From: Nitrospira sp.
GTDB lineage: Bacteria > UBA10199 > SBBF01
Assembly: GCA_005240075.1 (NCBI GenBank)
Contig: SBBF01000080.1
Location: forward strand, 1-29,838
Length of the DNA: 29,838 nucleotides
Direction of reading: 5' to 3'
The notes under the pieces were generated by a model, which did not search any database, had not been told where the DNA came from, and saw only the letters and a list, made by a program, of their open reading frames with translations. Shown piece after piece: positions 1 through 25,430 of the stretch. A program made the translations under genes and the position numbers. Position 1 is the stretch's first letter; each line of letters starts with the position of its first letter.

Positions 1-97
1 ACAACCGTCATGTAAAAAAGAAATCACAAAAACCAGTCCTGTTGCCTGGGGGAATTTGACATGGCCACGACTGGGGGATTTTCAAGTGGCCACCGGG

Positions 98-180
98 GTC
101 ATCCAGCACTTAAAAGCTTTTGAGTGCTGGATAAACCCCCCGTTGGTTCGTTCGGACTGGCAAAGCCAGATCCTCACTCA
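98..180 (+). repeat. Composite hairpin element, copy A: a 32-nt near-perfect palindrome ATCCAGCACTTAAAAGCTTTTGAGTGCTGGAT at 101-132, followed by the family hairpin CTGGCAAAGCCAG at 157-169
   Basis: The palindrome is self-complementary with one mismatch. A near-identical composite recurs in inverted orientation at 14255-14365. The 13-mer is shared with 6350-6362, 6822-6834, 8432-8444 and 14267-14279. Confidence 0.8.
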
Positions 181-226
181 CAATCCATTTCAAAAATAAA
201 GAAAATATTGCCTCAGAGCATTTTTA

Positions 227-3539: not shown

Positions 3540-3542
3540 TTA

Positions 3543-3668
3543 TATACCTTCCCGCTTCGCGATGAAGGAAGCCCCCAATCTCAGAACTGGCTACTTGTAC
3601 TTCGCAAAGCCGATGGCTTTGCTACGCGGCCAAGCCAAGCTTGGCCTTGTAGCCAGATTCTTCGTCAT
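3543..3668 (+). repeat. Composite hairpin element, copy B, expanded with nested hairpins, occupying the whole cysW-cysA intergenic spacer
   Basis: ATACCTTCCCGCTTCGCGATGAAGGAAGC...CTGGCTAC[GCAAAGCC-ATC-GGCTTTGC][GGCCAAGC-CAA-GCTTGGCC]GTAGCCAGATTCTTC. Read on the minus strand it ends GGAAGGTATATAA-ATG, the cysA start. Confidence 0.8.
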
Positions 3669-3682
3669 ATGGCATCCGTGTA

Positions 3683-4573
3683 TTATTTCGAATGTGTTTT
3701 CCATTCAACTAGTGCCTTTAATACAAGAGTTGCCAGCGCCAGCAACCCCAATAACGAAGCGACAGAAAACGCGCCGATAAAATTATATTCGTTGTAAAGA
3801 ATTTCAACCTGCAACGGCATGGTGGTTGTCAATCCCTGAATATGCCCTGAAACAACGGATACCGCGCCAAACTCCCCCATCGCTCTGGCATTGAGGAGAA
3901 TAACCCCATAAAGCATTCCCCAGCGAATGTTGGGAAGAGTCACCAAAAAAAAAGTTTGCCAACCGCTGGCTCCCAACGTCAACGAGGCTTCTTCCTCCTC
4001 GTTCCCCTGAGCCTGCATGAGAGGGATTAATTCACGCGCTACAAAGGGGAAAGTGACAAAAACGGTCGTGATCACAATCCCCGGAACGGCAAAGATAATT
4101 TTGATGTCGTGCGCGTTCAAAAAAGAACCCAAAAGACCCTGAGATCCAAACAAGAGCACAAAGACCAACCCCGAGACGACGGGGGAAACGCTAAACGGCA
4201 AATCAATGAGGGAAATCAAAAATCGTTTTCCAAAAAATTCGAATTTGGCAATCGCCCAGGCGGCTGAAATCCCAAAAATCACGTTCAAGGGAATTGAAAT
4301 AGCCGCGACGGTCAGAGTCAAGCGGATGGCCGACAGATTTTCAGGCGTGAACAACGATTGAATATATCTGACAAAACCCTCGTTAAAGGCACCCGCAAAA
4401 ACAGTTAGAAGGGGGAGAATCAGCACAAAGAAAACAATTCCCAACGCCAGAAAAGTCAAAATAAGGCGGATTTCTTTCCTTTCCGAAACGACGGATGGAT
4501 AAAGCGAAGTTGGAAAAATATTAAAGTTTTTCCGGATCATGATTCCTTTTCTCTCCCCATCCCTGAAGCCCAT
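3683..4573 (-). CDS. cysW: Sulfate ABC transporter permease CysW
   Basis: A multi-TM ABC permease with an EAA-like loop, sitting between cysT and cysA. The likely true start is the internal Met at 4540 (MIRKNF...). Confidence 0.85.
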   Translation of the reverse strand: MGFRDGERKGIMIRKNFNIFPTSLYPSVVSERKEIRLILTFLALGIVFFVLILPLLTVFAGAFNEGFVRYIQSLFTPENLSAIRLTLTVAAISIPLNVIFGISAAWAIAKFEFFGKRFLISLIDLPFSVSPVVSGLVFVLLFGSQGLLGSFLNAHDIKIIFAVPGIVITTVFVTFPFVARELIPLMQAQGNEEEEASLTLGASGWQTFFLVTLPNIRWGMLYGVILLNARAMGEFGAVSVVSGHIQGLTTTMPLQVEILYNEYNFIGAFSVASLLGLLALATLVLKALVEWKTHSK

Positions 4574-5519: not shown

Positions 5520-6263
5520 TTATTGCAACCGGAAGGAATCAGGGGTGTTTTCAAGAACCATATCGGCCAAAAAAGCTTTTTCTTCGTCAGTTGAAATGGT
5601 GCAGGTTTCTGGATCATCATCCTGCTGCTGCTGAAATTTTCCGTTGGCCTTGAATACGACGGCATTCCCGTCAACTTCAAAATCGTCATCCAGCGTAAAT
5701 ACCGCATACCAGTCTTCTTTGCTATTCGCTTTCATAGTAACCGCCTCAAAAGATCCATTTCTGTTAATGGGTGTCGTGACAATTTCGCCGGTGCTCACAT
5801 TCATGACAATCGCTTCCTTTTCATCTTCTCCTTTATCAAAAGTGGAGGGAGCTCCTCGAAGAGTAATCTGCACGGCCGATGAGTTCGTTTTGCCAAGAGC
5901 CGCCATTCTGGTTCCACTGCTTTTTGTACTGGCTTTCGTCAGAGCAGATGCCGTGGTGTCAGTCGATTTTTCACATTTCCCAATTGTGATTGGAATTGAA
6001 GTGGGATCATCCGATGGAGCAGAATAGGAACCCTCTCCTGTTGTGCCACCATCATCAGCTTCCCCTGTATCGTCACCACCGTCAGTTCCTGTGGCTTTCC
6101 CATCTCCCGTGGCTCCGTTGCTATAATCATAATAAATGTGCCCCCCCGTCACTCCCCCTTCCGTGGAACTGGGAATACCAGCTGTCGTGCCGCCACAATG
6201 GGCAATCAAAATTGTCAGGAGTAAAAGTAGAAAATTCTTCGATTGGATTCTGCCCCACATCAT
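5520..6263 (-). CDS. Putative secreted lipoprotein of 247 aa with a Gly/Thr/Asp-rich low-complexity linker
   Basis: Signal peptide with a Cys (LLLLLTILIAHCGG), a long G/T/D-rich region, then a C-terminal globular part. No family was recognised. Confidence 0.6.
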   Translation of the reverse strand: MMWGRIQSKNFLLLLLTILIAHCGGTTAGIPSSTEGGVTGGHIYYDYSNGATGDGKATGTDGGDDTGEADDGGTTGEGSYSAPSDDPTSIPITIGKCEKSTDTTASALTKASTKSSGTRMAALGKTNSSAVQITLRGAPSTFDKGEDEKEAIVMNVSTGEIVTTPINRNGSFEAVTMKANSKEDWYAVFTLDDDFEVDGNAVVFKANGKFQQQQDDDPETCTISTDEEKAFLADMVLENTPDSFRLQ

Positions 6264-6320: not shown

Positions 6321-6375
6321 TCAGATGGTCCCAAACCCCGTGTTCAGGACTGGCAAAGCCAGATCCTTCACTTAC
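6321..6375 (+). repeat. Partial family element, copy G (module 2 only): ...GTTCAGGACTGGCAAAGCCAGATCCTTCACTTAC
   Basis: Exact 13-mer CTGGCAAAGCCAG at 6350-6362, with flanks matching copy A (AAACCCC..GTTC.GGACTGGCAAAGCCAGATCCTCACTCAC). Confidence 0.75.
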
Positions 6376-6518
6376 TTAATATGCAAAGATGATGCCAAAT
6401 TAGTCGAAATTATATATCTATAAACTATTGAAATTATTAATCTAATTTTAATAAAAAAACAACTACGGGGAATGAATCCCCCATCTTATGCTTATTTTGA
6501 GGCATGAAGACAACATCC

Positions 6519-6597
6519 GATACCTTCCCGCTCGCTTTGCTCGCGATGAAGGAAGCCTCCCATCTCAGAACGGGCCAAGCCCGATTCTTCTCTCGTG
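6519..6597 (+). repeat. Composite hairpin element, copy C
   Basis: GATACCTTCCCGCTCGCTTTGCTCGCGATGAAGGAAGCCTCCCATCTCAGAACGGGCCAAGCCCGATTCTTC. The module-2 hairpin is CGGGC-CAA-GCCCG, a compensatory variant of CTGGC-AAA-GCCAG. Confidence 0.8.
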
Positions 6598-6663
6598 GGC
6601 GGTCGTGTTCTGACTGCTGGCAAGATTATCTTGCCAAAATAAATTAAGTGGATAAGTTGCCTG

Positions 6664-6761
6664 TCAGCCGGGCCCCGTGCAAAGGTATAAATACTCAATC
6701 CCGCCAGATCCGGAAGGAAGCAACGGTAGGTTTTTTTCCTTGTGCCGCGGTCAGCCCGGTG
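6664..6761 (+). ncRNA. ffs: Candidate small SRP RNA (4.5S-type ffs) immediately upstream of dnaX
   Basis: AGAUCCGGAAGGAAGCAACGG at 6707-6726 matches the conserved SRP domain-IV motif GGUCCGGAAGGAAGCAGCC (GGAA tetraloop with an asymmetric AGCA internal loop). The 5' CCGGGC pairs with the 3' GCCCGG, and GUGCAAAGG pairs with CCUUGUGC. The ffs-dnaX-ybaB-recR synteny is known, for example in Bacillus. The ends are approximate. Confidence 0.5.
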
Positions 6762-6768
6762 ATTATTT

Positions 6769-6850
6769 GTATACCTTCCCGCTCACTGCGTTCGCGATGA
6801 AGGAGGCTTCCGGGCTCAAAACTGGCAAAGCCAGATTTTTCGTTCGGTAG
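6769..6850 (+). repeat. Composite hairpin element, copy D, ending 9 nt before the dnaX start
   Basis: TATACCTTCCCGCTCACTGCGTTCGCGATGAAGGAGGCTTCCGGGCTCAAAACTGGCAAAGCCAGATTTTTCGTTCGG, with the exact 13-mer at 6822-6834. Confidence 0.8.
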
Positions 6851-6858
6851 CGACAACT

Positions 6859-8421
6859 ATGCCTTATCAAATTTTTGCCAGAAAATACCGGCCGCAATTG
6901 TTTGACGAAGTGTTGGGACAAGAGGTTGTTGTTCAAACGCTCAAGAACACCATTGAACTCAAAAGGGTTCATCAGGCTTACCTTTTCTGCGGCGCACGAG
7001 GGGTTGGCAAAACATCTCTCGCCCGGATTCTGGCCAAATGCTTAAACTGCGAAAAAGGGGCGACCGTTAACGCTTGCCAGACCTGCCCCTCCTGCAGAGG
7101 AATCACCGACGGCTCTTCGCTGGATGTTTTAGAGATTGACGGCGCTTCCAATACCGGTGTCGATGATGTGCGGGAATTGAGGGAGCAGGTCAAATATCTT
7201 CCCGCAACCGGACAGTATAAAATTTACATCATTGACGAAGTGCACATGCTTTCCACCAGCGCTTTTAACGCGCTTCTTAAAACGCTGGAAGAACCCCCTC
7301 CCCATATTCTTTTTATTTTTGCCACCACCGAACCGCACAAAATTCCGATCACCATTCTTTCCCGCTGCCAGCGATTTGATTTCCGCAGAATGTCTGTCAA
7401 CGAGCTGGTTTCCCATCTTCAAAAAATATTGGAACAGGAAAGATTAAAGTTGGAAACCGAAATTTTAAACCTGATTGCCCGATCGGCCGATGGATCGGTG
7501 AGGGATTCGCTCTCGCTCCTGGATCAGATTATCAGTTTCTGCGGTTCAAACCCTTCCCCGGAGCAGGCGAGGGAATTATTGGGGCTGGCCGATCAAAGTC
7601 TTCTTGCAGACATGATGGATGTTCTTCTCAACTCCGACACAAGCGGAGCACTCAAACTGGCCCAGAGAGCCTATGAGAAGGGATGTGATCTTAAAATATT
7701 CTCGGAAGGGGTGCTGGAATCGCTTCACTCTCTTCTTCTCTTCAGCGAAGGAGGAACACTGGATCTCACCGGCAGTGAAAGGGAGCAGTTTGAGAAATGG
7801 AAAACACAAACCGACACGGGGCGTCTGTTGATTCTTTTTCAGATTTTGGCCCGCGGCATTGAAGAGATGGCACGCAGTGAATTCCCCCGGCTTGTTTTTG
7901 ACACGACTCTCATCAAAATGATCCGATCCAAAGAATATTTGTTGATCCCGGAAATTCTGGAAAAGCTAAATGGGGCGGAAAAGGCCCCGAATCAAGAGAA
8001 TTCAAAAAAAAATGTACCCCCCACCAAACAGGAGAACAGTTTGTGGGGAGAATTTGTGAGAAAAGTGTGTGAATCAAAACCGCAGGTCGGCTCCATTTTG
8101 GAGCATGCCGTGCCGATTCAGATGGCCGAGGGGATGATCAAAGTCGGGTTTGAGCCCAAATCACTTTATGCCGATATGCTCAAAGATCGGATCGAATCAT
8201 TAAAACAAGTAGCCAAAGAATACTTTAAAAAAGAAATTCGTTTTGAGATCGAATCAGTATCGGTGCGTGATAGCCAGGGGGTCACAGCCCTGGAAATGAG
8301 GCAGAGAGAAGAAACCAAAAAAACGGAAGAGACTCGTGCAAGGGCAATGGCCCACCCCATGATTCAAAAAGCCCAGGAAATTTTGGGAGCTGTTGTAAAA
8401 GAAGTAAAAGAAATTAAGTAA
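6859..8421 (+). CDS. dnaX: DNA polymerase III subunit gamma/tau
   Basis: AAA+ clamp-loader motifs GARGVGKTS, the Zn module CxxC...CxxC, DEVHML and SRC. 520 aa. Confidence 0.95.
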   Translation: MPYQIFARKYRPQLFDEVLGQEVVVQTLKNTIELKRVHQAYLFCGARGVGKTSLARILAKCLNCEKGATVNACQTCPSCRGITDGSSLDVLEIDGASNTGVDDVRELREQVKYLPATGQYKIYIIDEVHMLSTSAFNALLKTLEEPPPHILFIFATTEPHKIPITILSRCQRFDFRRMSVNELVSHLQKILEQERLKLETEILNLIARSADGSVRDSLSLLDQIISFCGSNPSPEQARELLGLADQSLLADMMDVLLNSDTSGALKLAQRAYEKGCDLKIFSEGVLESLHSLLLFSEGGTLDLTGSEREQFEKWKTQTDTGRLLILFQILARGIEEMARSEFPRLVFDTTLIKMIRSKEYLLIPEILEKLNGAEKAPNQENSKKNVPPTKQENSLWGEFVRKVCESKPQVGSILEHAVPIQMAEGMIKVGFEPKSLYADMLKDRIESLKQVAKEYFKKEIRFEIESVSVRDSQGVTALEMRQREETKKTEETRARAMAHPMIQKAQEILGAVVKEVKEIK

Positions 8422-8423
8422 AG

Positions 8424-8451
8424 CCTTGCATCTGGCTTTGCCAGTGCAAGG
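8424..8451 (+). terminator. Nested hairpin just after the dnaX stop: CCTTGCA-[CTGGCTTTGCCAG]-TGCAAGG, with no U-tract
   Basis: A perfect 7-bp outer stem encloses the family 13-mer in inverse form (CTGGC-TTT-GCCAG, 8432-8444). It is followed by a CAGGGC...GCCCTG hairpin at about 8484-8512. Confidence 0.5.
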
Positions 8452-8537
8452 CGCGGGGGCATGGGGGGTATCAGCAGGGCAAATTGAAATCAAATGAGCC
8501 CTGCGGGCCCCCCATTGTAAATAACCAAGGAGATCAA

Positions 8538-9508: not shown

Positions 9509-9575
9509 ATAAAAAGGCCGAACAAAAATCTTGCCAACCTGTTGCCATTATATTACACTTGTAATAATTTGTATT

Positions 9576-10076
9576 ATGGACGTGATATTTGATGCATCAT
9601 CTCTTATTCTTTTGGCTAAGATCAGTCTATTGCGGCTCGTACTTGAAAATAACAGGAGTTTTATGACGGGGGCGGTGCAGAAGGAAATCGGCAAAAAAGA
9701 TTCTGACGACTCAAGATTAATGAGAGAAATGACAAGGGAGGGGCTTATTGAATTGTGCGATGAGCCGTCGGCAGGAGTCATCGATAAATTCATGAAGGAC
9801 TTTCGATTGGGAAAGGGGGAGGCGTCCACTCTCATAGCAGCGCAAAAAATGAAATCGCTGATTGCAACCGATGATGGTTTGGCCATTAAGACCGCTAAAC
9901 TGTTCAACATCCCTTTTTTAACAGCAATTCATTTTCTGGTCCGGCTGAGAACGCAAAAAGCGATCGACATGGAAGAGTCGGTAATGAAGCTTAAGCTTTT
10001 AGCACACTATGGAAGGTATCAGGCTTTTATTATTCACGATGCCGAAAAGCGTCTGAAAGGGGAGGGAGGAAACTGA
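9576..10076 (+). CDS. PIN-like nuclease of the DUF3368 family (putative toxin)
   Basis: MDVIFDASSLILLAKISLL...GKGEASTLIAAQKMKSLIATDDGLAIKTAKLFNIPFLTAIHFL matches the DUF3368 pattern (v.sDTtpLi.L..i..ldLL ... gEaeaialA.e...d.lllDDr.aR..A...gl.v.gT). The track ORF starts at 9531. The Met at 9576 is the likely start. Confidence 0.65.
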   Translation: MDVIFDASSLILLAKISLLRLVLENNRSFMTGAVQKEIGKKDSDDSRLMREMTREGLIELCDEPSAGVIDKFMKDFRLGKGEASTLIAAQKMKSLIATDDGLAIKTAKLFNIPFLTAIHFLVRLRTQKAIDMEESVMKLKLLAHYGRYQAFIIHDAEKRLKGEGGN

Positions 10077-10079
10077 ATC

Positions 10080-10364
10080 ATGAAAACAATGAGCATCCGG
10101 GTTAGTGATTCGGAATTAAAGCAAATCAGCAAATTGGCCAAAACAACCGGTTTGGACAAATCGGCCGCCGCTCGCGAGCTTTTAAGGGACGGCTGGTTTT
10201 TTTATTGGATACGCCAATACCGGGAAAAGAAGGTTTCACTGGAAAATTTGTCCTCCAATCTCAATCTTTCGCTTTCCGAGACGATTGATCTGCTCTCCGA
10301 GTTGGGTATTGAGGCCCCTATCAGCTACGATGATTATGTTTCCGGTTTTAAATTTTTTGGGTAG
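10080..10364 (+). CDS. Putative antitoxin: RHH-like N-terminus fused to a UPF0175-like C-terminus
   Basis: The N-terminus MSIRVSDSELKQISKLAKTTGLDKSAAARELL is ribbon-helix-helix-like. The C-terminus YREKKVSLENLSSNLNLSLSETIDLLSELGIEAPISYDD matches UPF0175 (yreGkiSlgkaAelagms..ef.dlL.erGIp..yd.ed). It starts 3 nt after the PIN gene. Confidence 0.55.
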   Translation: MKTMSIRVSDSELKQISKLAKTTGLDKSAAARELLRDGWFFYWIRQYREKKVSLENLSSNLNLSLSETIDLLSELGIEAPISYDDYVSGFKFFG

Positions 10365-10412
10365 TAGAAAAAGGATTGGGTATCGCAATACCCTCGGGCT
10401 TGAGTTGAAATA

Positions 10413-11231
10413 TTAAAGGATAAACTGCCGGAAAACTTGTTCATAATTGAGAATCCACTGCTGTTCGGAGGGGTCTTCCAAAAAACGCCCCACATCCTTA
10501 AGGATGTCGGAGGCTCCTGCTTTTTTGACTTGTTGCTCAACAGCTTTCATGACTTGAGGCACATCCTTAAATTTTTTCCCCTTTGTGCCCCGGTTTAAAT
10601 AACTCAAGTTCAGTTCCGTTTTCCGGCTTAAATACCAGATGAGGTCATAATAGTCTCGACCGCGAGAATACGGTCGATGAAGCAGTGCCAAAATTTTTCC
10701 CGCGAACAGGGTGGGGAGGTTGTGTTTTAAGATCGGAAAAATCTCCTGAAAACGGTTGACGAAAAAACTTTCCCGCTCTCCTTTTTTGAGCGGAAGGGGA
10801 TTTACGTCCACTTCCAGTTTTACATGGAGTTTTTGATCCTCCTGGAAGCCCCTGAGGTCAAAGGCCCGTCCAAGGCCGGCAAAACGCAAGAAACCTTTTT
10901 GGACGATTTTGTTTTCCTGAAACGAGGAATCAATGTCAAAACCTCGCAGCTTAAGTTCGCGAGCCAACACATCCATCAGGTTGGCGAACCGGTAAGACTC
11001 TTTTTTGCCGTCCCGGCAGAAATCAAGGTCTTCGGAATAACGCTTGATGCCATGGCAGATGCGCAGGGCCGTTCCCCCCATAAACGACAGGCTCCCCCCA
11101 AAGGGGGACTGAAATACCATCTTGAGCACCAGCGTCTGGAGGTACTCGCGAAGGACATTGAGGACATCCTGATCCGTTGTCGGCAGGTTTCGCCTTCGAA
11201 GTTCTTCAATTATTTTTCTGGCTCTTTCCAT
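10413..11231 (-). CDS. abiEii: AbiEii/AbiGii-family nucleotidyltransferase toxin (type IV TA / abortive infection)
   Basis: Hallmark motif GGTALRICHGIKRYSEDLDF (PF08843-like GGTAL...R.SeDlDf) plus a DUF1814-like C-terminus. It overlaps the upstream abiEi by 26 nt. Confidence 0.75.
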   Translation of the reverse strand: MERARKIIEELRRRNLPTTDQDVLNVLREYLQTLVLKMVFQSPFGGSLSFMGGTALRICHGIKRYSEDLDFCRDGKKESYRFANLMDVLARELKLRGFDIDSSFQENKIVQKGFLRFAGLGRAFDLRGFQEDQKLHVKLEVDVNPLPLKKGERESFFVNRFQEIFPILKHNLPTLFAGKILALLHRPYSRGRDYYDLIWYLSRKTELNLSYLNRGTKGKKFKDVPQVMKAVEQQVKKAGASDILKDVGRFLEDPSEQQWILNYEQVFRQFIL

Positions 11232-11820
11232 AATTTGTTCGGTAATCCAAAAAGGAAGTTAAAAGTCGCCCCACCTTTTCAGGGTATTGCCGGGCATAGA
11301 CTTTAAGTTTCTTCACGTCAAGATCCCCGACATTTTGAAAGCGTTCTTCTCTCCAAAAAAGAGGAGTCGCTTTCAAGTGATGGCGATGGAAGTAGAAATA
11401 ATCCAGAAGAGCCTTCTCCTTTTCGGCCATGAGCGTTTGCGGGTCAAAGCCCCAAAAAAGTTTCTGATGAATCTTGTGATAAAAAAATTCCCCATAGGGG
11501 GTCTGGAACTTCCGGGTAAGTCGGGGGGTGACCAGAGTCATGGAAAAAGGGACATCGGGAATGAACCCATGGGCATGAAGGGCATATTCCAGACTGATAT
11601 AGGAGGGGCCGTACAAGATTTTTGCCACCTCCACTTTGTCCCTGATCCGATCCGGAAAACCATACACCCCTCTTTTGAAGCGGAGCAGCTCCCCCTGCCG
11701 ACACCAGTGGTGAAGCTGGACCTTCAACTGATTCGGGGAGGTTTCCCATCCCACCCGATGGGCCTCCTCCAAGGTAAAACAGGGTTTTTGCATTTTTTTG
11801 ACGAATTCATTAAGTTTCAT
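11206..11820 (-). CDS. abiEi: AbiEi-family antitoxin/transcriptional regulator (N-terminal wHTH)
   Basis: A 204-aa protein with QLHHWCRQGELLRFKRGVYGF, the AbiEi_4 signature l..G.l.ri.rGvY. It lies immediately upstream of, and overlapping, abiEii. Confidence 0.65.
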   Translation of the reverse strand: MKLNEFVKKMQKPCFTLEEAHRVGWETSPNQLKVQLHHWCRQGELLRFKRGVYGFPDRIRDKVEVAKILYGPSYISLEYALHAHGFIPDVPFSMTLVTPRLTRKFQTPYGEFFYHKIHQKLFWGFDPQTLMAEKEKALLDYFYFHRHHLKATPLFWREERFQNVGDLDVKKLKVYARQYPEKVGRLLTSFLDYRTNYGKSQKNN

Positions 11821-13413: not shown

Positions 13414-13887
13414 TCAGACTCTCTGAAGCAGGGAGGATACCGATTCTCCCGTTTGAGGATTGACCCAGTCCGGCGCAATTTCGCGAAGCGGCTCCAAAAC
13501 AAAACGGCGCCTCCCGATTTCGGGATGGGGCAAAATCAAATCATCGGTTTTCAAAATCACTGAGCCGTAAAAAAGAAGATCCAGATCAATCACCCGGGAT
13601 TCCCATTTGACGCGACGGACCCTCCCCATTTTTTGTTCAATGCCCAGCAGTTCCCGGAGCAAAACCTCCGGTTCAAGCGCTGTTTCCACAAGACAAACGG
13701 CATTCACATACCAGTCAACAGATTGAAAGTTTTCTTCATGAGGAGGAAGAAGGGGTTCGTTATGATAAAAAGAGGAACAGGCTATCAGCCGGCTTTCTGG
13801 GAGATTTGTCAGAGCTTTCAACGCCTTTTGACACTGGAGAAAAGGATGATCCAGGTTGCTTCCTATGGCAATACCTGCTTGCATCAT
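13414..13887 (-). CDS. folK: 2-amino-4-hydroxy-6-hydroxymethyldihydropteridine pyrophosphokinase (HPPK)
   Basis: IAIGSNL...YHNEP...W.SR.IDLDLL......DL.LPHPE...R.FVL.PL.EI.P. The start codon directly abuts repeat copy E. Confidence 0.85.
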   Translation of the reverse strand: MMQAGIAIGSNLDHPFLQCQKALKALTNLPESRLIACSSFYHNEPLLPPHEENFQSVDWYVNAVCLVETALEPEVLLRELLGIEQKMGRVRRVKWESRVIDLDLLFYGSVILKTDDLILPHPEIGRRRFVLEPLREIAPDWVNPQTGESVSSLLQRV

Positions 13888-13967
13888 ATACCTTCCCGCT
13901 CGGGCTTTGCCCTCGCGATGAAGGGGGCCCTCGAGTTCAGGAGTGGCAAAGCCACATCCTTCATCAT
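13887..13967 (+). repeat. Composite hairpin element, copy E, abutting the folK start codon
   Basis: ATATACCTTCCCGCTCGGGCTTTGCCCTCGCGATGAAGGGGGCCCTCGAGTTCAGGAGTGGCAAAGCCACATCCTTCATC. Inner hairpin GGGC-TTT-GCCC. Module-2 hairpin GTGGC-AAA-GCCAC, a compensatory variant. Confidence 0.8.
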
Positions 13968-14150
13968 CTGGCGCTCGAGCATTCCGGCTTCGTTTATCTT
14001 TTTTGGAATGGGAAGATCAAGAGATTTTTAAAAAACCTGAACATCCCACAAACCGAAGTGATTGCAAAATAAGGGATTTGACGGTAAGAAAACTTGTCTG
14101 AAAGCAGAGTCAAACACGAACCCCCTCGACCGAAGAATCAGGCTTTGCAT

Positions 14151-14234
14151 TGATATACCTTCCCGTCAGCTTTTGGCTGACGATGAAGGGGGCCTCCGAG
14201 ATCAGAACTGGGAGACCCAGATTCTTCTTCCGGG
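14151..14234 (+). repeat. Composite hairpin element, copy F
   Basis: TGATATACCTTCCCGTCAGCTTTTGGCTGACGATGAAGGGGGCCTCCGAGATCAGAACTGGGAGACCCAGATTCTTCTTCC. Inner hairpin CGTCAGC-TTTT-GGCTGACG. Module-2 hairpin CTGGG-AGA-CCCAG, a compensatory variant. Confidence 0.8.
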
Positions 14235-14254
14235 GGCAGTCGAGTATAATGGAT

Positions 14255-14365
14255 GTGAGTGAGGATCTGGCTTTGCCAGTTATGAGTGAGGATCGAATTT
14301 ACTTCGTCCGAGCGAATACCAAGGGGGTTTATCCAGCACTCAAAAGCTTTTGAGTGCTGGATGAA
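14255..14365 (-). repeat. Inverted copy (A') of the composite element seen at 98-180: CTGGCTTTGCCAG hairpin (14267-14279) plus the perfect 32-nt palindrome ATCCAGCACTCAAAAGCTTTTGAGTGCTGGAT (14331-14362)
   Basis: The reverse complement aligns with 98-180 (CATCCAGCACT.AAAAGCTTTTGAGTGCTGGATAAACCCCC...CTGGCAAAGCCAGATCCTCACTCA) with one internal indel. It is followed by GATGAAGGGGGC and a GGGGGC...GCCCCC hairpin before the tRNA. Confidence 0.8.
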
Positions 14366-14397
14366 GGGGGCGCCAGCGGCAAAGCCCCCATTATAAT

Positions 14398-14487
14398 GGA
14401 GAGGTGGCCGAGTGGTCGAAGGCGCCTGACTCGAAATCAGGTATACCTTTACCGGTATCGTGGGTTCGACTCCCACCCTCTCCGCCA
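14398..14487 (+). tRNA. tRNA-Ser (anticodon CGA), type II, with encoded CCA
   Basis: Manual fold: acceptor GGAGAGG/CCTCTCC, anticodon stem CCTGA/TCAGG with loop CTCGAAA, long variable arm, T-arm GTGGG-TTCGACT-CCCAC, 3' GCCA. Confidence 0.85.
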
Positions 14488-16841: not shown

Positions 16842-17000
16842 AGTGCCCCGGGCTTGCACCGGGGGGGGGTCCGGTGAACTTCACCAAGCCCGGAGGGCAT
16901 TGAGGGGGAGGCAACTATCTTACTTCGCAAACCTAACAGTTTGCTACGCGCCGCGAATGAATCGCGGCTTGTATCCGGCTTCACCGGTGGAGGGGGCAAC
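16842..17000 (+). repeat. GC-rich multi-hairpin segment after yyaL that shares the TACTTCGCAAA...TTTGCTACGCG module with copy B
   Basis: CCCGGGCTTG[CACCGG-GGGGGGT-CCGGTG]AACTTCACCAAGCCCGG. CTTACTTCGCAAAC-CTAACA-GTTTGCTACGCG, to be compared with copy B ACTTCGCAAAGCC-GAT-GGCTTTGCTACGCG. GCCGCGA-ATGAA-TCGCGGC. Long-range CCGGTGAA / TTCACCGG. Confidence 0.6.
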
Positions 17001-20066: not shown

Positions 20067-22043
20067 ATGACCGATAAAATAGCTGGATTGAAAGGTTTGA
20101 CGGTGGTTTCGTTCGAAAGCCGGATGAAGCTTCCGATGCAACGGTTAATTGAAAAGTATGGTGGAAAAGCTTTTGTCGCCCCTTCAATGAAAGAAGTGCC
20201 ACTGGCCGAAAATCCAGGAGCGTTTGATTTTTTTGAAAAACTGGAGAGAGATCAGTTTGATCTGGTGATTTTGATGACAGGGGTAGCCACCCGAACGCTG
20301 ATCCAGACTCTAGAAACCCGTTTCCCGAAGGAACGAATACTCGAAGCCCTTTCCACCAAGACAAAAATTGTCGTCCGGGGACCCAAGCCGACAGCGGTCT
20401 GCAAAATGAACCATATTCCGATTGTGGTGACCGCCCCCGAACCGAATACCTGGCGCGAAATTCTGGCCATCCTGAACGAAGAACAATTATTGGCCAATAA
20501 GCGAGTTGCCGTATTGGAATATGGCATATCGAATGTCTCGTTTTTGGAGGAACTGCAATTGGCCGGAGCCCAGGTGACCCCCGTCGCTGTTTATCAATGG
20601 GCCTTGCCTGATGATCTAGGCCCCTTAAATCAGGCTGTTGATTTAATCCTGGCTGGTGAGGCAGATCTGGCGCTGTTTACCACGTCGGTTCAGGTTGATC
20701 ATCTCCTAAAAATAACGCGCGAGAGGAAAAAAGAATTGGCCTTGCGTCGGGCTTTTCACAAAATCGGTGTTTGTTCTATCGGTCCCACCACAAGCGAAAA
20801 ACTGCGCGACCACCAAATTTTTCCTGATCTGGAGGCGAGCCCTAATAAAATGGATGCACTCGTGGAACAGGTCTCAGAAAAAGGAAAAGAGATTGTAGAG
20901 CAAAAAAGAGCGCGCTCAGAGAAGAGCTGGATATGGAAGGATTATCCGAAATTACGTAGGGGCGATCCTTGTGATCGCCCATTTGATCGGGCGAAGACAA
21001 GCTTCGCCCCTACGGATTCTCCCCTGATGCGCGCCTGCCGGCGCCAACCAAACAAGACGATTCCCATTTGGCTGATGCGCCAGGCGGGCCGTTATATGGC
21101 GGAGTATCATATTTCGCGACGGGGTTTGGGCTTTTTGGAATTTTGCAAGCGACCCGAGCTCACTGCCGAAGCCACCATCACAGCTGTTGAGCGATTAGGG
21201 GTGGATGCCGCCATCATTTTTGCCGATATTCTGCTGATTGTTGAACCAATGGGACTTAATCTCACTTATCTGGAAGGGGAAGGACCGGTGATTGCCACTC
21301 CAATTCGTGATGAAGAGAGTGTCGGCAAACTTAAACCGGTCGAGGTACAGGAGTCTCTCTGTTATGTTCTGGAAGCGGTCAAGACCGTTCGGCAATCGAT
21401 GCGCCCCGATATTCCTCTGATCGGTTTTTGCGGCGCCCCTTTTACCGTCGCTTCCTACATGATTGAGGGGAGAGGGACGGTGTCCCAAGGCTCCAAAAAT
21501 TTTATTCCGACAAAGATCCTGATGCACCAGCATCCGCAAACCTGGCATGAATTGATGGAAAAAATTACAATCGCTTCGATCGATTATTTGAACGCCCAAA
21601 TTGAAGCGGGAGCCGATGTAGTGCAGATCTTTGACAGCTGGGTGGGGGTTTTGAGCCCGCAAGAATACGAGGAGTATGTTCTTCCTCATTCCAAAAGACT
21701 CATTGATGGAATCAAAAAAGGGGTTCCCGTTATTCATTTTGGAACACAGACCGCTTCTCTTCTTTCCCTGATGAAAAAAGCAGGGGGGGATGTGATCGGG
21801 ATTGATTCAAGGACCGACATCCAAAAAGCGTGGGATCAACTGGGAGAGGTTGCCATTCAGGGAAATCTTGATCCGGTGATTCTTTTTTCAAAGCCTGAGA
21901 TTATTTGCAGGGAGGCCGAAAAAATACTCAAAGCTGTCGGGCACAAACCGGGATTTATTTTCAATCTGGGGCATGGCATTCTGCCGGAAACCCCTGTCGA
22001 CAACGTCATGGCGCTGGTTGATTTTGTCCATGAGGCAAAGTAA
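20067..22043 (+). CDS. hemD-hemE: Apparent fusion protein: uroporphyrinogen-III synthase (HemD, N-terminal, about 1-290) plus uroporphyrinogen decarboxylase (HemE, C-terminal, about 313-658)
   Basis: The HemD-like N-half has two alpha/beta subdomains. The HemE half carries RQPNKTIPIWLMRQAGRYM...PELTAEATI...DAAIIFADIL......GFCGAPFT.ASYM......NLGHGI. There is no in-frame stop across the junction. The linker is encoded by the palindromic doublet 20956-21013. An internal ATG at 21025 could start a separate hemE. Confidence 0.75.
   Translation: MTDKIAGLKGLTVVSFESRMKLPMQRLIEKYGGKAFVAPSMKEVPLAENPGAFDFFEKLERDQFDLVILMTGVATRTLIQTLETRFPKERILEALSTKTKIVVRGPKPTAVCKMNHIPIVVTAPEPNTWREILAILNEEQLLANKRVAVLEYGISNVSFLEELQLAGAQVTPVAVYQWALPDDLGPLNQAVDLILAGEADLALFTTSVQVDHLLKITRERKKELALRRAFHKIGVCSIGPTTSEKLRDHQIFPDLEASPNKMDALVEQVSEKGKEIVEQKRARSEKSWIWKDYPKLRRGDPCDRPFDRAKTSFAPTDSPLMRACRRQPNKTIPIWLMRQAGRYMAEYHISRRGLGFLEFCKRPELTAEATITAVERLGVDAAIIFADILLIVEPMGLNLTYLEGEGPVIATPIRDEESVGKLKPVEVQESLCYVLEAVKTVRQSMRPDIPLIGFCGAPFTVASYMIEGRGTVSQGSKNFIPTKILMHQHPQTWHELMEKITIASIDYLNAQIEAGADVVQIFDSWVGVLSPQEYEEYVLPHSKRLIDGIKKGVPVIHFGTQTASLLSLMKKAGGDVIGIDSRTDIQKAWDQLGEVAIQGNLDPVILFSKPEIICREAEKILKAVGHKPGFIFNLGHGILPETPVDNVMALVDFVHEAK
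20956..21013. repeat. REPIN-like inverted doublet of 25-nt GTAG-initiated hairpin units, lying inside the hemD-hemE ORF
   Basis: Unit 1 is GTAGGGGCGATCCTTGTGATCGCCC (20956-20980). Unit 2 on the opposite strand is GTAGGGGCGAAGCTTGTCTTCGCCC (21013-20989). The spacer is 8 nt. Each unit folds as a GGGCGA/TCGCCC hairpin. GTAG 5' termini are the hallmark of REP elements. Confidence 0.6.
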
Positions 22044-23389: not shown

Positions 23390-23899
23390 ATGATCATGGG
23401 GTTGGGACAGTCACAAAAATCAGGTCAGTCAGATCGAACCCAATTTGGAGGATCTTTTGGTACGGGAGGAGGGCTGGATACTCTTTTCAGTTCACTGGAT
23501 GCATCGGTGGCCGAAAATCTGGTGATTCTGATTTCCGGTGAGTTTGGGCGTCAGCTGAGCGCGAATGGGGATGGGGGGACAGATCATGGAAGAGGAAACA
23601 GTATGTTGGTGATTGGAGATCCTGTTGTCGGTGGTCTTTACGGCGATCTTTTTCCTGAAAGTGAGCTAGCCCGTTTTGATGAACCGAGTAGTGATATTGA
23701 AGGGCTGACCTCCATGGAACATGTTTTTGGGGCTGTTTGGGGCTGTTTGGGGCTGTTTGTGACTGGATGCAAGCCGGGGCTGGCAGTGTCGTGTTTCCCA
23801 ACCGGTCGGGTGCTGATTTGGAGGAAGGGGTCAGTCTGGAAGGATTGTTGGTTTAAGATTCCCACTCATTTCTTTTTGCCCGCTTCGTTGATCATTTGA
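23390..23899 (+). pseudogene. Truncated fragment of a DUF1501-family gene (C-terminal about 100 aa only), carrying a tandem 11-nt repeat
   Basis: NLVILISGEFGRQLSANGDGGTDHGRGNSMLVIGDPVVGGLYGDLFPE matches the DUF1501 C-terminal signature (l.v..gEFGRtp.....GRDH......l.aGggv.gG.vyG.td). Full-length members are over 400 aa. TTTGGGGCTGT occurs 3 times in tandem at 23726-23758. The 3' end overlaps hemH by 34 nt. Confidence 0.5.
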
Positions 23900-24891
23900 C
23901 AAACCGCTTCAACCCACAGAGGGTTTTCATTCAGGGAGGGAATCAGTTCCAGATGTTCTCCCCCCCTTTTTAAAAAAGAGTCTCTCCCTCGAATCCCTAT
24001 CTCCTCAAGAGTTTCCAGACAATCAGCCACAAACGAAGGACAAAAAACAGCGAGCCATTTGATCCCTTTTTTTGGAAATTCAGTCAGCAAAATATCCGTA
24101 TAAGGTTTGATCCAGGGGGTTCTCCCCAATCGCGATTGAAAGGAGATGGTAAATTGCTTTTCAGTCAACCCCAGTTCTTTGGCAATCAGTTTGGCGGTTT
24201 GAAAACAGTGGGCCCGATAACAAGCCTGGTTGGCGATCTCCATTTTTTCGCAACAATCCCTCACCTGCAAACACCAGGAGCCTGTCTTGTCCAGTTTGGT
24301 TAAATGTCTTTCAGGAAGACCATGAAAGCTGAACAGAACATGATCCGGATTCATGCGATTGATCACCTCCTTTCCCTGTTCGACCCATGCCCGGATAAAA
24401 GAGGGATGATCATAAAAAGGAGGGATGACTTTCAGCGGGGGAACCAGTTTTATTTTTTCAATCACCCGAAACAGTTCGGTCAAACTTGATTCGGTGCTGG
24501 ATGAGGCATACTGGGGGTAGAGGGGAAAAATTCGCAATTCATCGACTGATTTCGAAAGAATTTTTTTTAACCCCTCTTCAATTGAGGGACTTCCATAACG
24601 CATTCCTATCTCTACCGCATAATTTTCTCCCAATTGACTCGCCACTGTTTTGGCTAAGGCTTCTGTGTGAATAATAAGAGGCGAGCCTTGGTCGCCCCAG
24701 ATTTTCTGATAAGCAGCCGCCGATTTTCGGGGACGGAAGGGGAGAATAAACAGATTCAACAATAACCAGCGGGCCAGCGGATGGATGTCGATCACCAGCG
24801 GATCGGACAAGAATTGCCTTAAGAATTTCCGGACAGCCGGCACGGTGGGAGCTTTCGGACTTCCGAGATTGATTAAAAGAATACCCGTCAT
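23866..24891 (-). CDS. hemH: Ferrochelatase
   Basis: MTGILLINLGSPKAPTVPAVRKFLRQFLSDPLVIDI... is the canonical HemH N-terminus. 341 aa. Confidence 0.9.
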   Translation of the reverse strand: MTGILLINLGSPKAPTVPAVRKFLRQFLSDPLVIDIHPLARWLLLNLFILPFRPRKSAAAYQKIWGDQGSPLIIHTEALAKTVASQLGENYAVEIGMRYGSPSIEEGLKKILSKSVDELRIFPLYPQYASSSTESSLTELFRVIEKIKLVPPLKVIPPFYDHPSFIRAWVEQGKEVINRMNPDHVLFSFHGLPERHLTKLDKTGSWCLQVRDCCEKMEIANQACYRAHCFQTAKLIAKELGLTEKQFTISFQSRLGRTPWIKPYTDILLTEFPKKGIKWLAVFCPSFVADCLETLEEIGIRGRDSFLKRGGEHLELIPSLNENPLWVEAVCQMINEAGKKK

Positions 24892-24918: not shown

Positions 24919-25131
24919 CTAGGCGGCCTTTTGGAAGTCTAACATCAAACCTTTATCGGCACATGCCTGCAGATAAAAATTGATCAGATTTTGATAAGGA
25001 ATGCCTGTGCGAAAGGCCATCTTTTTAAAATAGTCAAGGGTAGTCTTATCCAACCTGATCGTGATTTGTCTTTTAAGACGACGTGCGTAGGGATTTTTAA
25101 CCGATTTTGAAAAATCGTATTCTTTTCTCAT
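24919..25131 (-). CDS. brnA: BrnA-like antitoxin (second copy)
   Basis: RQITIRLDKTTLDYFKKMAFRTGIPYQNLINFYLQACA matches the BrnA pattern. It overlaps brnT by 4 nt. Confidence 0.7.
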   Translation of the reverse strand: MRKEYDFSKSVKNPYARRLKRQITIRLDKTTLDYFKKMAFRTGIPYQNLINFYLQACADKGLMLDFQKAA

Positions 25132-25430
25132 GATAGATGCTCCTGGTAAATACGAATCTCCTTTTTTACAGCCTTTCTTGCAGAAATGATTCGTATAACC
25201 GATTCATTTTTACGATAGCAATGGTTAACAACCAATAGACGGAATTTTACGCTCATACCGAGAAGAACATAACGATCTTCTTTCCACGAATGATCCGGAT
25301 CTGCAATGAGTCTGGCACACGGATCAATGAAAACCGTTTTTGCTTCTTCAAAAGAGATGCCATGCTTTTTAAGGTTTAACCGGCTCTTCAAACCACTCCA
25401 TTCGAAGTCAAGGTCAGTTTCCTCAGGCAT
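25128..25430 (-). CDS. brnT: BrnT-like toxin (DUF497, second copy)
   Basis: FEWSGLKSRLNLKKHGISFEEAKTVFIDP....DPDHSWKEDRYVLLGMS...LLVVNHCYR.....IRIISARKA...E...Y is the canonical DUF497 pattern. Confidence 0.75.
   Translation of the reverse strand: MPEETDLDFEWSGLKSRLNLKKHGISFEEAKTVFIDPCARLIADPDHSWKEDRYVLLGMSVKFRLLVVNHCYRKNESVIRIISARKAVKKEIRIYQEHLS

Follow-up and report, generated by a model that had tools for sequence, protein, structure and literature searches.

We analysed a stretch of bacterial DNA of 29,838 nucleotides (hereafter the window), which is the whole 29.8-kb contig SBBF01000080.1 of an uncultured "Deltaproteobacteria"-like metagenome-assembled genome (MAG), and found a composite repeat of about 85–90 nt, present in six full copies (size range of full copies 85–135 bp) and at least five fragments. 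All of them are intergenic and all lie in the first 17 kb. A full copy joins module 1, ATACCTTCCCG...CGATGAAGG around a variable inner hairpin, to module 2, the 13-nt hairpin CTGGCAAAGCCAG or a paired variant of it. These repeats probably make up one lineage-specific family of mobile elements that are small, non-coding and non-autonomous.

According to this reading, the element would insert at T-A/G-T trinucleotides, mostly TAT, in very short AT-rich spacers before genes, and insertion would apparently duplicate 3 bp. The mobilising enzyme would act in trans and is not encoded in the window. Hairpins, and not terminal inverted repeats (TIRs), would define the element, with their pairing maintained by compensatory substitutions. 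We infer the transposition mechanism, the recognition of the hairpins by a protein (most likely the mobilising enzyme) and any effect on expression; the hairpins would probably also keep the transcribed element harmless. Modules and fragments are found alone, in tandem, nested, or recombined into a second composite (type B).

Evidence for insertion

The gene for the signal recognition particle (SRP) RNA ends at 6764 in the window and dnaX starts at 6859, and the 94-nt spacer between them is the element itself (ATTTG-TAT-[6773–6857]-TAT-G). This full copy (+; 87.2 bits in the cmsearch described below) is flanked by TAT at 6770–6772 and at 6858–6860, and its right-hand TAT supplies the AT of the dnaX ATG. 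Deleting 6773–6857 together with one TAT leaves ATTTGT, a 6-nt spacer, and an intact dnaX ATG. The same two genes are separated by a 7-nt spacer in the related contig L047 (ffs 5816–5914, dnaX ATG at 5922; DnaX 61–63% identical). A distance of 7 nt between the end of the SRP RNA gene and the dnaX start is an unusually tight junction between an RNA gene and a protein gene.

The same pattern was observed at other junctions. The spacer between ribH and nusB measures 327 nt and holds two tandem copies in contigs L113 and L173, which encode identical NusB proteins and represent one population. Without the element, this junction is TAA-TATTTT-ATG in L172, a 6-nt spacer (NusB 84% identical); L169 (76%) has 12 nt between the two genes, which overlap in L170 and L171 (72%). 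Removing the element and one TAT from the tuf-rpmG spacer of L049 leaves the compact junction GAG TAA TAGGAGTAAAT ATG, and removing 3546–3680 and one TAT from the junction of an ABC permease and an ABC ATPase gene in the window leaves the compact TAA TATAA ATG. The latter copy (+) lies between the permease stop and the ATPase start, both genes being on the minus strand, with TAT at 3543–3545 and 3681–3683.

Identical trinucleotides were found at both boundaries in 6 out of 12 full copies, five times TAT and once TGT. Control offsets gave about 0.037 matches per position, with about 1.8 copies expected to carry matching trinucleotides. The TGT case is the full copy at 1811–1896 (−; 96.7 bits), the most diverged one, between an RNase T-like gene and an open reading frame (ORF) starting at 1918; it has TGT on both sides in element orientation (ACA at 1808–1810 and 1897–1899 on the plus strand). 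This copy matters because its left flank departs from the consensus and its right flank departs in the same way. The left flank is otherwise nearly invariant, being (T)AT in 14 of the 16 copies. Copies were also found nested, truncated, in tandem or abutting older fragments, and they adjoin genes as unrelated as dnaX, folK, the ABC ATPase gene, rpmG, nusB, tRNA-Arg and the SRP RNA gene.

Fold and covariation

Every full copy folds alike into two hairpin domains on either strand, with z-scores of −0.8 to −3.9 against shuffled sequences, and the element extends from ACCTTCC... to ...GGGC plus 4–7 variable bases. In domain 1, an invariant CCTTC/GAAGG stem surrounds a CGC...GCG stem, usually with a TC/TC internal loop, and ends in a variable tip. 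Domain 2 consists of an irregular outer stem (e.g. GCCTCCG/CGGGGGC, TGCCCCC/GGGGGCA, CTTCCGGGC/GTTCGGTAG) around AGAA-CTGGC-AAA-GCCAG-A-TTCT, in which the AAA loop and the bulged A are conserved. The hairpin loops take large inserts: 61 nt of a further repeat (type C) in the copy at 3546 and 31 nt at the same place in the copy of contig L099.

The preliminary description of this DNA, made from its letters only, had proposed that pairing is conserved in the repeats while sequence is not, and the alignments bear this out. In the nine-copy alignment, the proposed structure pairs 81.5% of the cells, whereas column shuffles pair 74.7% and 0 out of 500 reach the observed value. Changes on both sides affect 16 pairs where 5.8 would be expected, and with the register slid by 1–3 columns only 33–54% of the cells pair. 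In the module-2 stem of 16 copies, 138 out of 144 cells are Watson-Crick pairs, against 117±2.9 in shuffles (0/5000), with double changes at 7 of the 9 stem positions. The versions of the stem pairs include AGAA/TTCT, AGGA/TCCT, AAAA/TTTT, GGGA/TCCC, GTGGC/GCCAC, CGGGC/GCCCG, CTGGG/CCCAG and CTGGA/TCCAG. Changes that break a pair are clearly rarer than those that preserve it, contrary to the outcome that the preliminary description had named as refuting the family. The middle of the domain-2 outer stem pairs poorly in a fixed register because the register shifts between copies. All these shuffle controls overstate the significance of the covariation, since the copies are paralogues. The wobble cells of the module-2 stem (no G:T and two A:C among the 144) are too few to tell which strand folds; the antisense strand folds slightly better in 8 out of 11 copies, by 2.7 kcal/mol on average.

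The inner hairpins of module 1 had been described as always self-complementary. That goes too far: the copies at 6521 and 6772 have a 2x2 TC/TC internal mismatch.

Copies and modules in the window

A recount placed the exact 13-mer CTGGCAAAGCCAG at five positions, as previously stated: 157, 6350 and 6822 on the plus strand and 8432 and 14267 on the minus strand. With up to 2 mismatches allowed there are 8 matches against 0.92 expected, a number reached by 0 out of 100 shuffles. The four paired stem variants of the preliminary description were all located, namely GTGGC/GCCAC (13943), CGGGC/GCCCG (6571), CTGGG/CCCAG (14208) and CTGGCTAC...GTAGCCAG (3587–3656), the last holding a nested insert of about 60 nt. 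Module 1 is present five times on the plus strand (3544, 6520, 6771, 13888 and 14155) and once more as the diverged reverse complement at 1811–1896.

A covariance model built from 9 full copies recovered the copies listed before. Its full matches are 1803–1902(−), 3540–3686(+), 6516–6613(+), 6767–6864(+), 13884–13985(+) and 14151–14250(+), and five of the six share one orientation. Partial matches, to domain 2 only, are 154–173, 6338–6376 and 14253–14292, and weakly 8410–8519. True copies score 69–108 bits in cmsearch, whereas chance loci with the 20-nt module-1 pattern score at most 27.6 bits. Besides the copies already placed, the window has a full copy at 6522–6608 (+; 88.1 bits) upstream of the SRP RNA gene (6666–6764), with CGGGC-CAA-GCCCG as module 2, and a domain-2-only copy at 6338–6376 (+; 28.1 bits, model positions 46–84).

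The array at 13887–14397 is probably a pile-up of four insertions in the spacer between folK and tRNA-Ser(CGA). At its left end, the full copy at 13890–13979 (+; 92.8 bits, and the fold) has the inner hairpin GGGC-TTT-GCCC and module 2 GTGGC-AAA-GCCAC; it is flanked by TAT at 13887–13889 on the left and CAT at 13980–13982 on the right, 2–5 nt upstream of the folK start (−). Three copies and a palindrome had been reported for this array. They are present; the palindrome, however, belongs to the third copy, which is of type B, and the count of copies was incomplete, as blastn-short recovered an additional decayed domain-2 fragment at 14131–14148 (−; 17/18 identity to the domain-2 consensus, E=0.005) that abuts the next full copy. 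The latter, at 14157–14244 (+; 104 bits), has the inner hairpin CGTCAGC-TTTT-GGCTGACG, module 2 CTGGG-AGA-CCCAG, TAT on both flanks (14154–14156 and 14245–14247) and a fold of −43.6 kcal/mol (z −3.6). The type B composite at 14253–14365 (−) is recognised by its inverted repeats and is the reverse complement of 95–182: a module-2 hairpin (14267–14279) stands between two GAGTGAGGATC direct repeats (14257–14267 and 14284–14294), followed by a spacer and the 32-nt palindrome at 14331–14362, which is perfect as described. The second type B composite, at 95–182 (+), combines a near-perfect palindrome (101–132) with module 2 at 157–169. At the right end of the array, 14360–14389 (+) reads GATGAAGGGGGC, a hairpin GGGGGC...GCCCCC and ATTATAAT, which directly abuts the tRNA gene (14398–14487, +; ARAGORN, Rfam tRNA 62.8 bits); GATGAAGGGGGC is the 12-mer that also forms the 3' side of module 1.

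The nested insert of the copy at 3546–3680 is the type C repeat (3594–3654, 61 nt), sitting in the module-2 hairpin loop and built as TACTTCGCAAA-hairpin-TTTGCTACGCG-hairpin-CTTGTA. A second type C repeat (TACTTCGCAAA..TTTGCTACGCG..) lies at 16917–16975 (+), and both hairpins differ between these two window copies by full compensatory replacement. The region 16842–17000, earlier regarded as related to the main family, is so through this type C repeat only and is not a copy of the main family.

A different arrangement was observed between dnaX and ybaB. These genes overlap (ATGA) in L046 and L047, while the window has an insert of about 62 nt (8422–8483) with a module-2 hairpin in a longer palindrome, GCCTTGCA...TGCAAGGC (8424–8451, −). 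The insert is bounded by an imperfect 12-nt direct repeat, GAAATTAAGTAA / GAAATCAAATGA, a signature unlike the TAT of the full element.

Distribution beyond the window

We scanned other sequence collections with a 20-base module-1 pattern, ATACCTTCCCG-N(3–30)-CGATGAAGG. Among the GTDB representative genomes (one per species; the host genome is absent), it gave 45 single matches against about 30 expected from the size of the collection, in unrelated phyla and at chance level. On viral contigs there was no match to this pattern, the 28 matches of a 16-mer equal chance, and no covariance-model match rose above chance. On metagenome contigs the pattern occurs in 92 stretches, mostly by chance, with true copies on eight or nine related contigs. 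L049, L061/L097, L069 (where the contig end cuts it), L071, L099 and, twice, L113 carry the whole composite of module 1, linker, module 2 and tail. L093 has module 1 alone and was kept as a family member because its inner stem matches that of the second L113 copy; module-1-only matches in L102 and L125 score like chance loci and were left uncounted. Of the copy-bearing contigs, several originate from a single sample series (Ga0066640, Ga0066649) and AMFJ01030089 is one. We found no copy in about 70 kb of related contigs (L046, L047, L168–L172). Judged from these sequence matches, the family reaches beyond the window yet is confined to a narrow lineage.

In the Rfam search of the window (gathering thresholds and E<=1), only the SRP RNA and two tRNAs matched and no match overlapped a repeat copy; likewise, no repeat copy was matched on the related contigs. 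A literature search for the motif sequences returned unrelated primer matches only.

Position, orientation and coding

A copy necessarily adjoins a gene end and a gene start because the ancestral spacers are only 0–15 nt long; therefore, the ACC end lies 3–20 nt from the starts of folK, the ABC ATPase gene, ORF 1918, the genes in L093, L099 and L049, and nusB; for tRNA-Arg in L097/L069 the distance is 8 nt. In 9 out of 11 assignable loci (two-sided p about 0.07), the strand that is transcribed is the element's reverse complement, relative to the sequence as written here, the exceptions being the two copies that flank the SRP RNA gene. In four copies, sense module 2 followed by ATTCTTC or ATTTTTC resembles an intrinsic terminator. 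The strand count is no more than suggestive of an orientation bias. A simple cause would be the terminator-like sense strand, and such a bias is not separable from one relative to replication.

Other roles were considered for parts of the element and rejected or, in the last case, found weak. A small protein MKGAS.LRTGKARFF... could start at the ATG in CGATGAAGG; a loop TAA interrupts it in two copies (L071 and L049), its C-termini differ, and the covarying stem changes alter residues. An outward promoter has no sigma-70-like −35/−10 pair at fixed spacing, because the variable inner hairpin shifts the spacing. Supply of a Shine-Dalgarno (SD) sequence by GGAAGG is weakened, as most genes in the window have none and several neighbours in other contigs have their own SD between element and ATG.

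TATAAT(A) stands directly 5' of the mature tRNA-Ser(CGA) (14392–14397) and of tRNA-Arg in L097 (496–503). Its short distance from those genes speaks against a −10 box of their own, and it may simply represent the AT-rich TAT target of the repeat.

Several intergenic spacers consist mostly of repeat sequence, which makes up 65% of one spacer of 513 nt, and the repeats create spurious ORFs and N-terminal extensions. The public gene call P0121 (L173, 347–985) extends NusB to 212 aa through two copies and is an annotation artefact. With repeats placed at start codons and at the 5' ends of tRNA genes, errors can follow in gene calling, in the prediction of operons and in searches for new RNA motifs.

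Alternative explanations

A structured RNA or a mobile REP- or MITE-like element had been offered as the two possible explanations. The empty sites, the flanks and the nested, truncated and tandem copies favour mobility; the assignment to REPs or to canonical MITEs (for miniature inverted-repeat transposable elements) does not stand. Several findings weigh against a mobile element. The first 25 nt and the reverse complement of the last 25 nt of 9 copies match no better than shuffles, so there are no TIRs; Pfam scans agree with the earlier statement that the window has no transposase or RAYT gene. The flanking trinucleotides agree in no more than half of the full copies, the variable 3' end of the element blurs the right boundary, and TAT is common in AT-rich spacers. 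The relatives with empty sites are only 61–84% identical at the protein level, and insertion is deduced by parsimony. Finally, both the possible orientation bias with respect to transcription and the conserved unpaired bases (the AAA loop, the bulged A and GATGAAGG) could point to a role at the RNA level.

Such a role would suit a structured RNA family with a function of its own, as a small RNA or as a cis-regulatory leader. Selection would then act on the fold, and the copies would reflect recruitment and not selfish spread; for instance, the CCUUC/GAAGG stem could hide GGAAGG and the AU-rich start region of the downstream gene in the antisense, transcribed orientation. We consider this quite unlikely. 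Covariation in several stems and the conserved loops and bulge agree with it, as do the assignment of the antisense strand as the transcribed one at 9 of the 11 loci, the short distance of the GGAAGG end from start codons or tRNA 5' ends (3–20 nt) and the slightly better antisense fold. Yet the neighbours are functionally unrelated and include tRNA and SRP RNA genes, the copies occur in both orientations and in truncated, nested and tandem form, and the sites of relatives are empty, with 0–12-nt spacers; therefore, the genes work without the element. Most window genes have no SD, so that supplying or hiding one is not obviously relevant, and the orientation bias is not significant alone and can be explained by the terminator-like hairpin with its U-rich tract. 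The earlier suggestion of an independent structured-RNA gene family was not upheld, since the copies adjoin unrelated genes and occur in either orientation, and Rfam gave no match with the threshold relaxed to E<=1.

A mobile origin of another kind would be a REP/REPIN-like element or one derived from IS200/IS605. An HUH tyrosine transposase (RAYT/TnpA) would move it as single-stranded DNA, reading the hairpins and cutting beside a fixed short sequence, with TAT representing a required target plus a conserved element end and no duplication. Elements derived from IS200/IS605 have similar subterminal hairpins and insert 3' of a fixed tetra- or pentanucleotide with no target duplication. The lack of TIRs, the definition by hairpins with covarying stems but conserved tips, the near-fixed left (T)AT and the shared orientation of five of the six full window copies are all consistent with this origin, and a REPIN-like GTAG...CTAC doublet at 20954–21016 hints at such systems in the genome. 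On the other side, the family hairpins have no GTAG/CTAC beside them and form no inverted doublets, the two domains are dissimilar whereas IS200/IS605 ends resemble each other, and the TGT left flank is mirrored by TGT on the right, as a true duplication would give. Pfam scans found no Y1/HUH transposase gene in the window or in the related contigs examined. Overall, an origin of this kind is unlikely.

The compensatory changes could also be a mutational by-product, where intrastrand template switching or gene conversion in palindromes transfers one arm to the other and restores pairing. The variable parts are indeed hairpin tips and extensions, i.e. quasi-palindromes prone to templated mutation, the inner stem of module 1 is swapped as whole hairpins and not by single pairs, and the paralogy of the copies inflates the shuffle statistics. 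Nevertheless, single-pair switches occur at scattered positions of the module-2 extension (AGAA/TTCT, AGGA/TCCT, AAAA/TTTT, GGGA/TCCC) beside the invariant bulged A and AAA loop, much as in ordinary compensatory evolution, and the bulge and the TC/TC internal loop are conserved, though templated correction would tend to remove them. Overall, this explanation is improbable.

We give little credence to the most far-reaching proposal, a hairpin-defined transposon without TIRs whose novel transposase reads two dissimilar stem-loops and makes a 3-bp TAT duplication, and which, inserted in its preferred orientation, would also serve as a portable 5'-leader that gates the gene directly downstream. 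If true, the CCUUC/GAAGG stem of the portable leader would gate translation start or RNA processing, and the element would be a mobile riboregulator rewiring housekeeping operons.

Host contig and gene setting

The DnaX of the host is a singleton in the protein collection; its closest relatives are only 61–63% identical, and the named ones among the more distant matches are 'Deltaproteobacteria bacterium' MAGs. The window has an ordinary chromosomal gene content. Its RNA genes include tRNA-Ser(GGA), the SRP RNA and tRNA-Ser(CGA); its protein genes include dnaX-ybaB-recR, folK and those for a BrnT toxin, an ABC transporter, an RNase T-like exonuclease, a peptide-release-factor-like protein, transaldolase, a Ras-like GTPase, an AbiE toxin-antitoxin pair, haem biosynthesis and a DUF255 thioredoxin-domain protein. 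ARAGORN called a second tRNA-Ser(CGA) at 24512–24596 (+), inside the ferrochelatase ORF (23866–24891, −) and with no Rfam match; this call is likely to be false.

Two BrnT-family ribonuclease toxin genes are present (227–535 and 25128–25430), the first of which has a type B repeat directly upstream. The recR and Ras-like GTPase genes are adjacent in L047; here (9531–11820), an insert of about 2.4 kb between them carries an ORF of unknown function, a ribbon-helix-helix protein and the AbiEii/AbiEi toxin-antitoxin pair. The REPIN-like inverted doublet at 20954–21016, ACGTAG-GGGCGATC-CTTGT-GATCGCCC ... GGGCGAAG-ACAA-GCTTCGCCC-CTACGG, is the sole copy in the window and falls, in frame, within the stretch that links the HemD domain to the HemE domain in a fused ORF (20067–22043).

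In the 25 nt 5' of 25 start codons of the window, an SD-like sequence is missing from most genes and the sequence is AT-rich instead. Such upstream regions suggest that initiation in this lineage would be SD-independent.

Comparison with known systems

The family is new in sequence and in host, but its kind, the small mobile intergenic repeat, is well known; the features of known families are taken here from Delihas 2011 (PMC3184786). The closest analogue is bcr1 of the Bacillus cereus group (group A; Okstad 2004, Klevan 2007), of about 155 bp, which has 5-bp direct repeats, two independent stem-loops kept by compensatory changes and a genomic distribution that is not conserved (PMC3184786). 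Both repeats are intergenic and patchily distributed, with short flanking direct repeats and two stem-loops with compensatory changes, both occur in or near transcripts, here putative ones, and a transposase has been identified for neither. Unlike bcr1, our element measures about 85–90 bp, has an apparent 3-bp TAT and belongs to a different host lineage, so the likeness is one of kind only. We found no sequence relationship to bcr1, with no direct homology test made against bcr1 sequences, and no Rfam family matches the element.

As in Neisseria REP2 and Borrelia IR-A/IR-B, there are no TIRs, two internal stem-loops are present, the position is often directly upstream of ORFs, and a motif like a ribosome-binding site (RBS) stands at the gene-proximal end. 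REP2 (120–150 bp) carries a promoter, an RBS and an ATG (PMC3184786). Our element differs from it in that no sigma-70-like promoter was found in it, in a host where most genes lack an SD, in also preceding tRNA and SRP RNA genes, and in its apparent flanking duplications.

MITEs have TIRs, of 26 bp in Correia and 21 bp in Chunjie; Correia/NEMIS targets TA, and Chunjie of Geobacter has been seen in an ABC transporter operon (PMC3184786). The element resembles them in being short, non-coding and multi-copy, in its presence or absence among relatives, its AT-rich intergenic targets and its stable fold, and perhaps in a target duplication; the sole ORF through it is broken by TAA loops in L071 and L049. 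It shares with them the tolerance of insertion in operons (here ABC permease-ATPase, tuf-rpmG and ribH-nusB). Unlike MITEs, it has no TIRs and forms two side-by-side hairpins, not one long hairpin from the ends.

GC-rich hairpins with conserved tips and covarying stems, mosaic modules, intergenic position and high density are shared with REP, BIME and REPIN sequences. In contrast to these, the element is longer, has no inverted doublets and, unlike REPs, seems to duplicate its target. Moreover, GTAG/CTAC is not conserved beside the 13–23-nt GC-rich module-2 palindrome in the 16 copies, GTAG being found only in the copy with the nested insert, and adjacent full copies are direct and not inverted (13890/14157 in the window and the two copies in L113).

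The pneumococcal BOX element is likewise modular (boxA-boxB-boxC, as compared with domain 1, domain 2 and tail), varies in its number of modules, is predicted to fold stably and lies near genes. There is no sequence similarity, though, the BOX modules are in tandem within one element, and mobilisation of BOX has been proposed through an insertion sequence with similar ends. Otherwise ordinary, the family described here adds a further case, like bcr1, of a mobile repeat that has no TIRs and keeps its hairpins by compensatory change.

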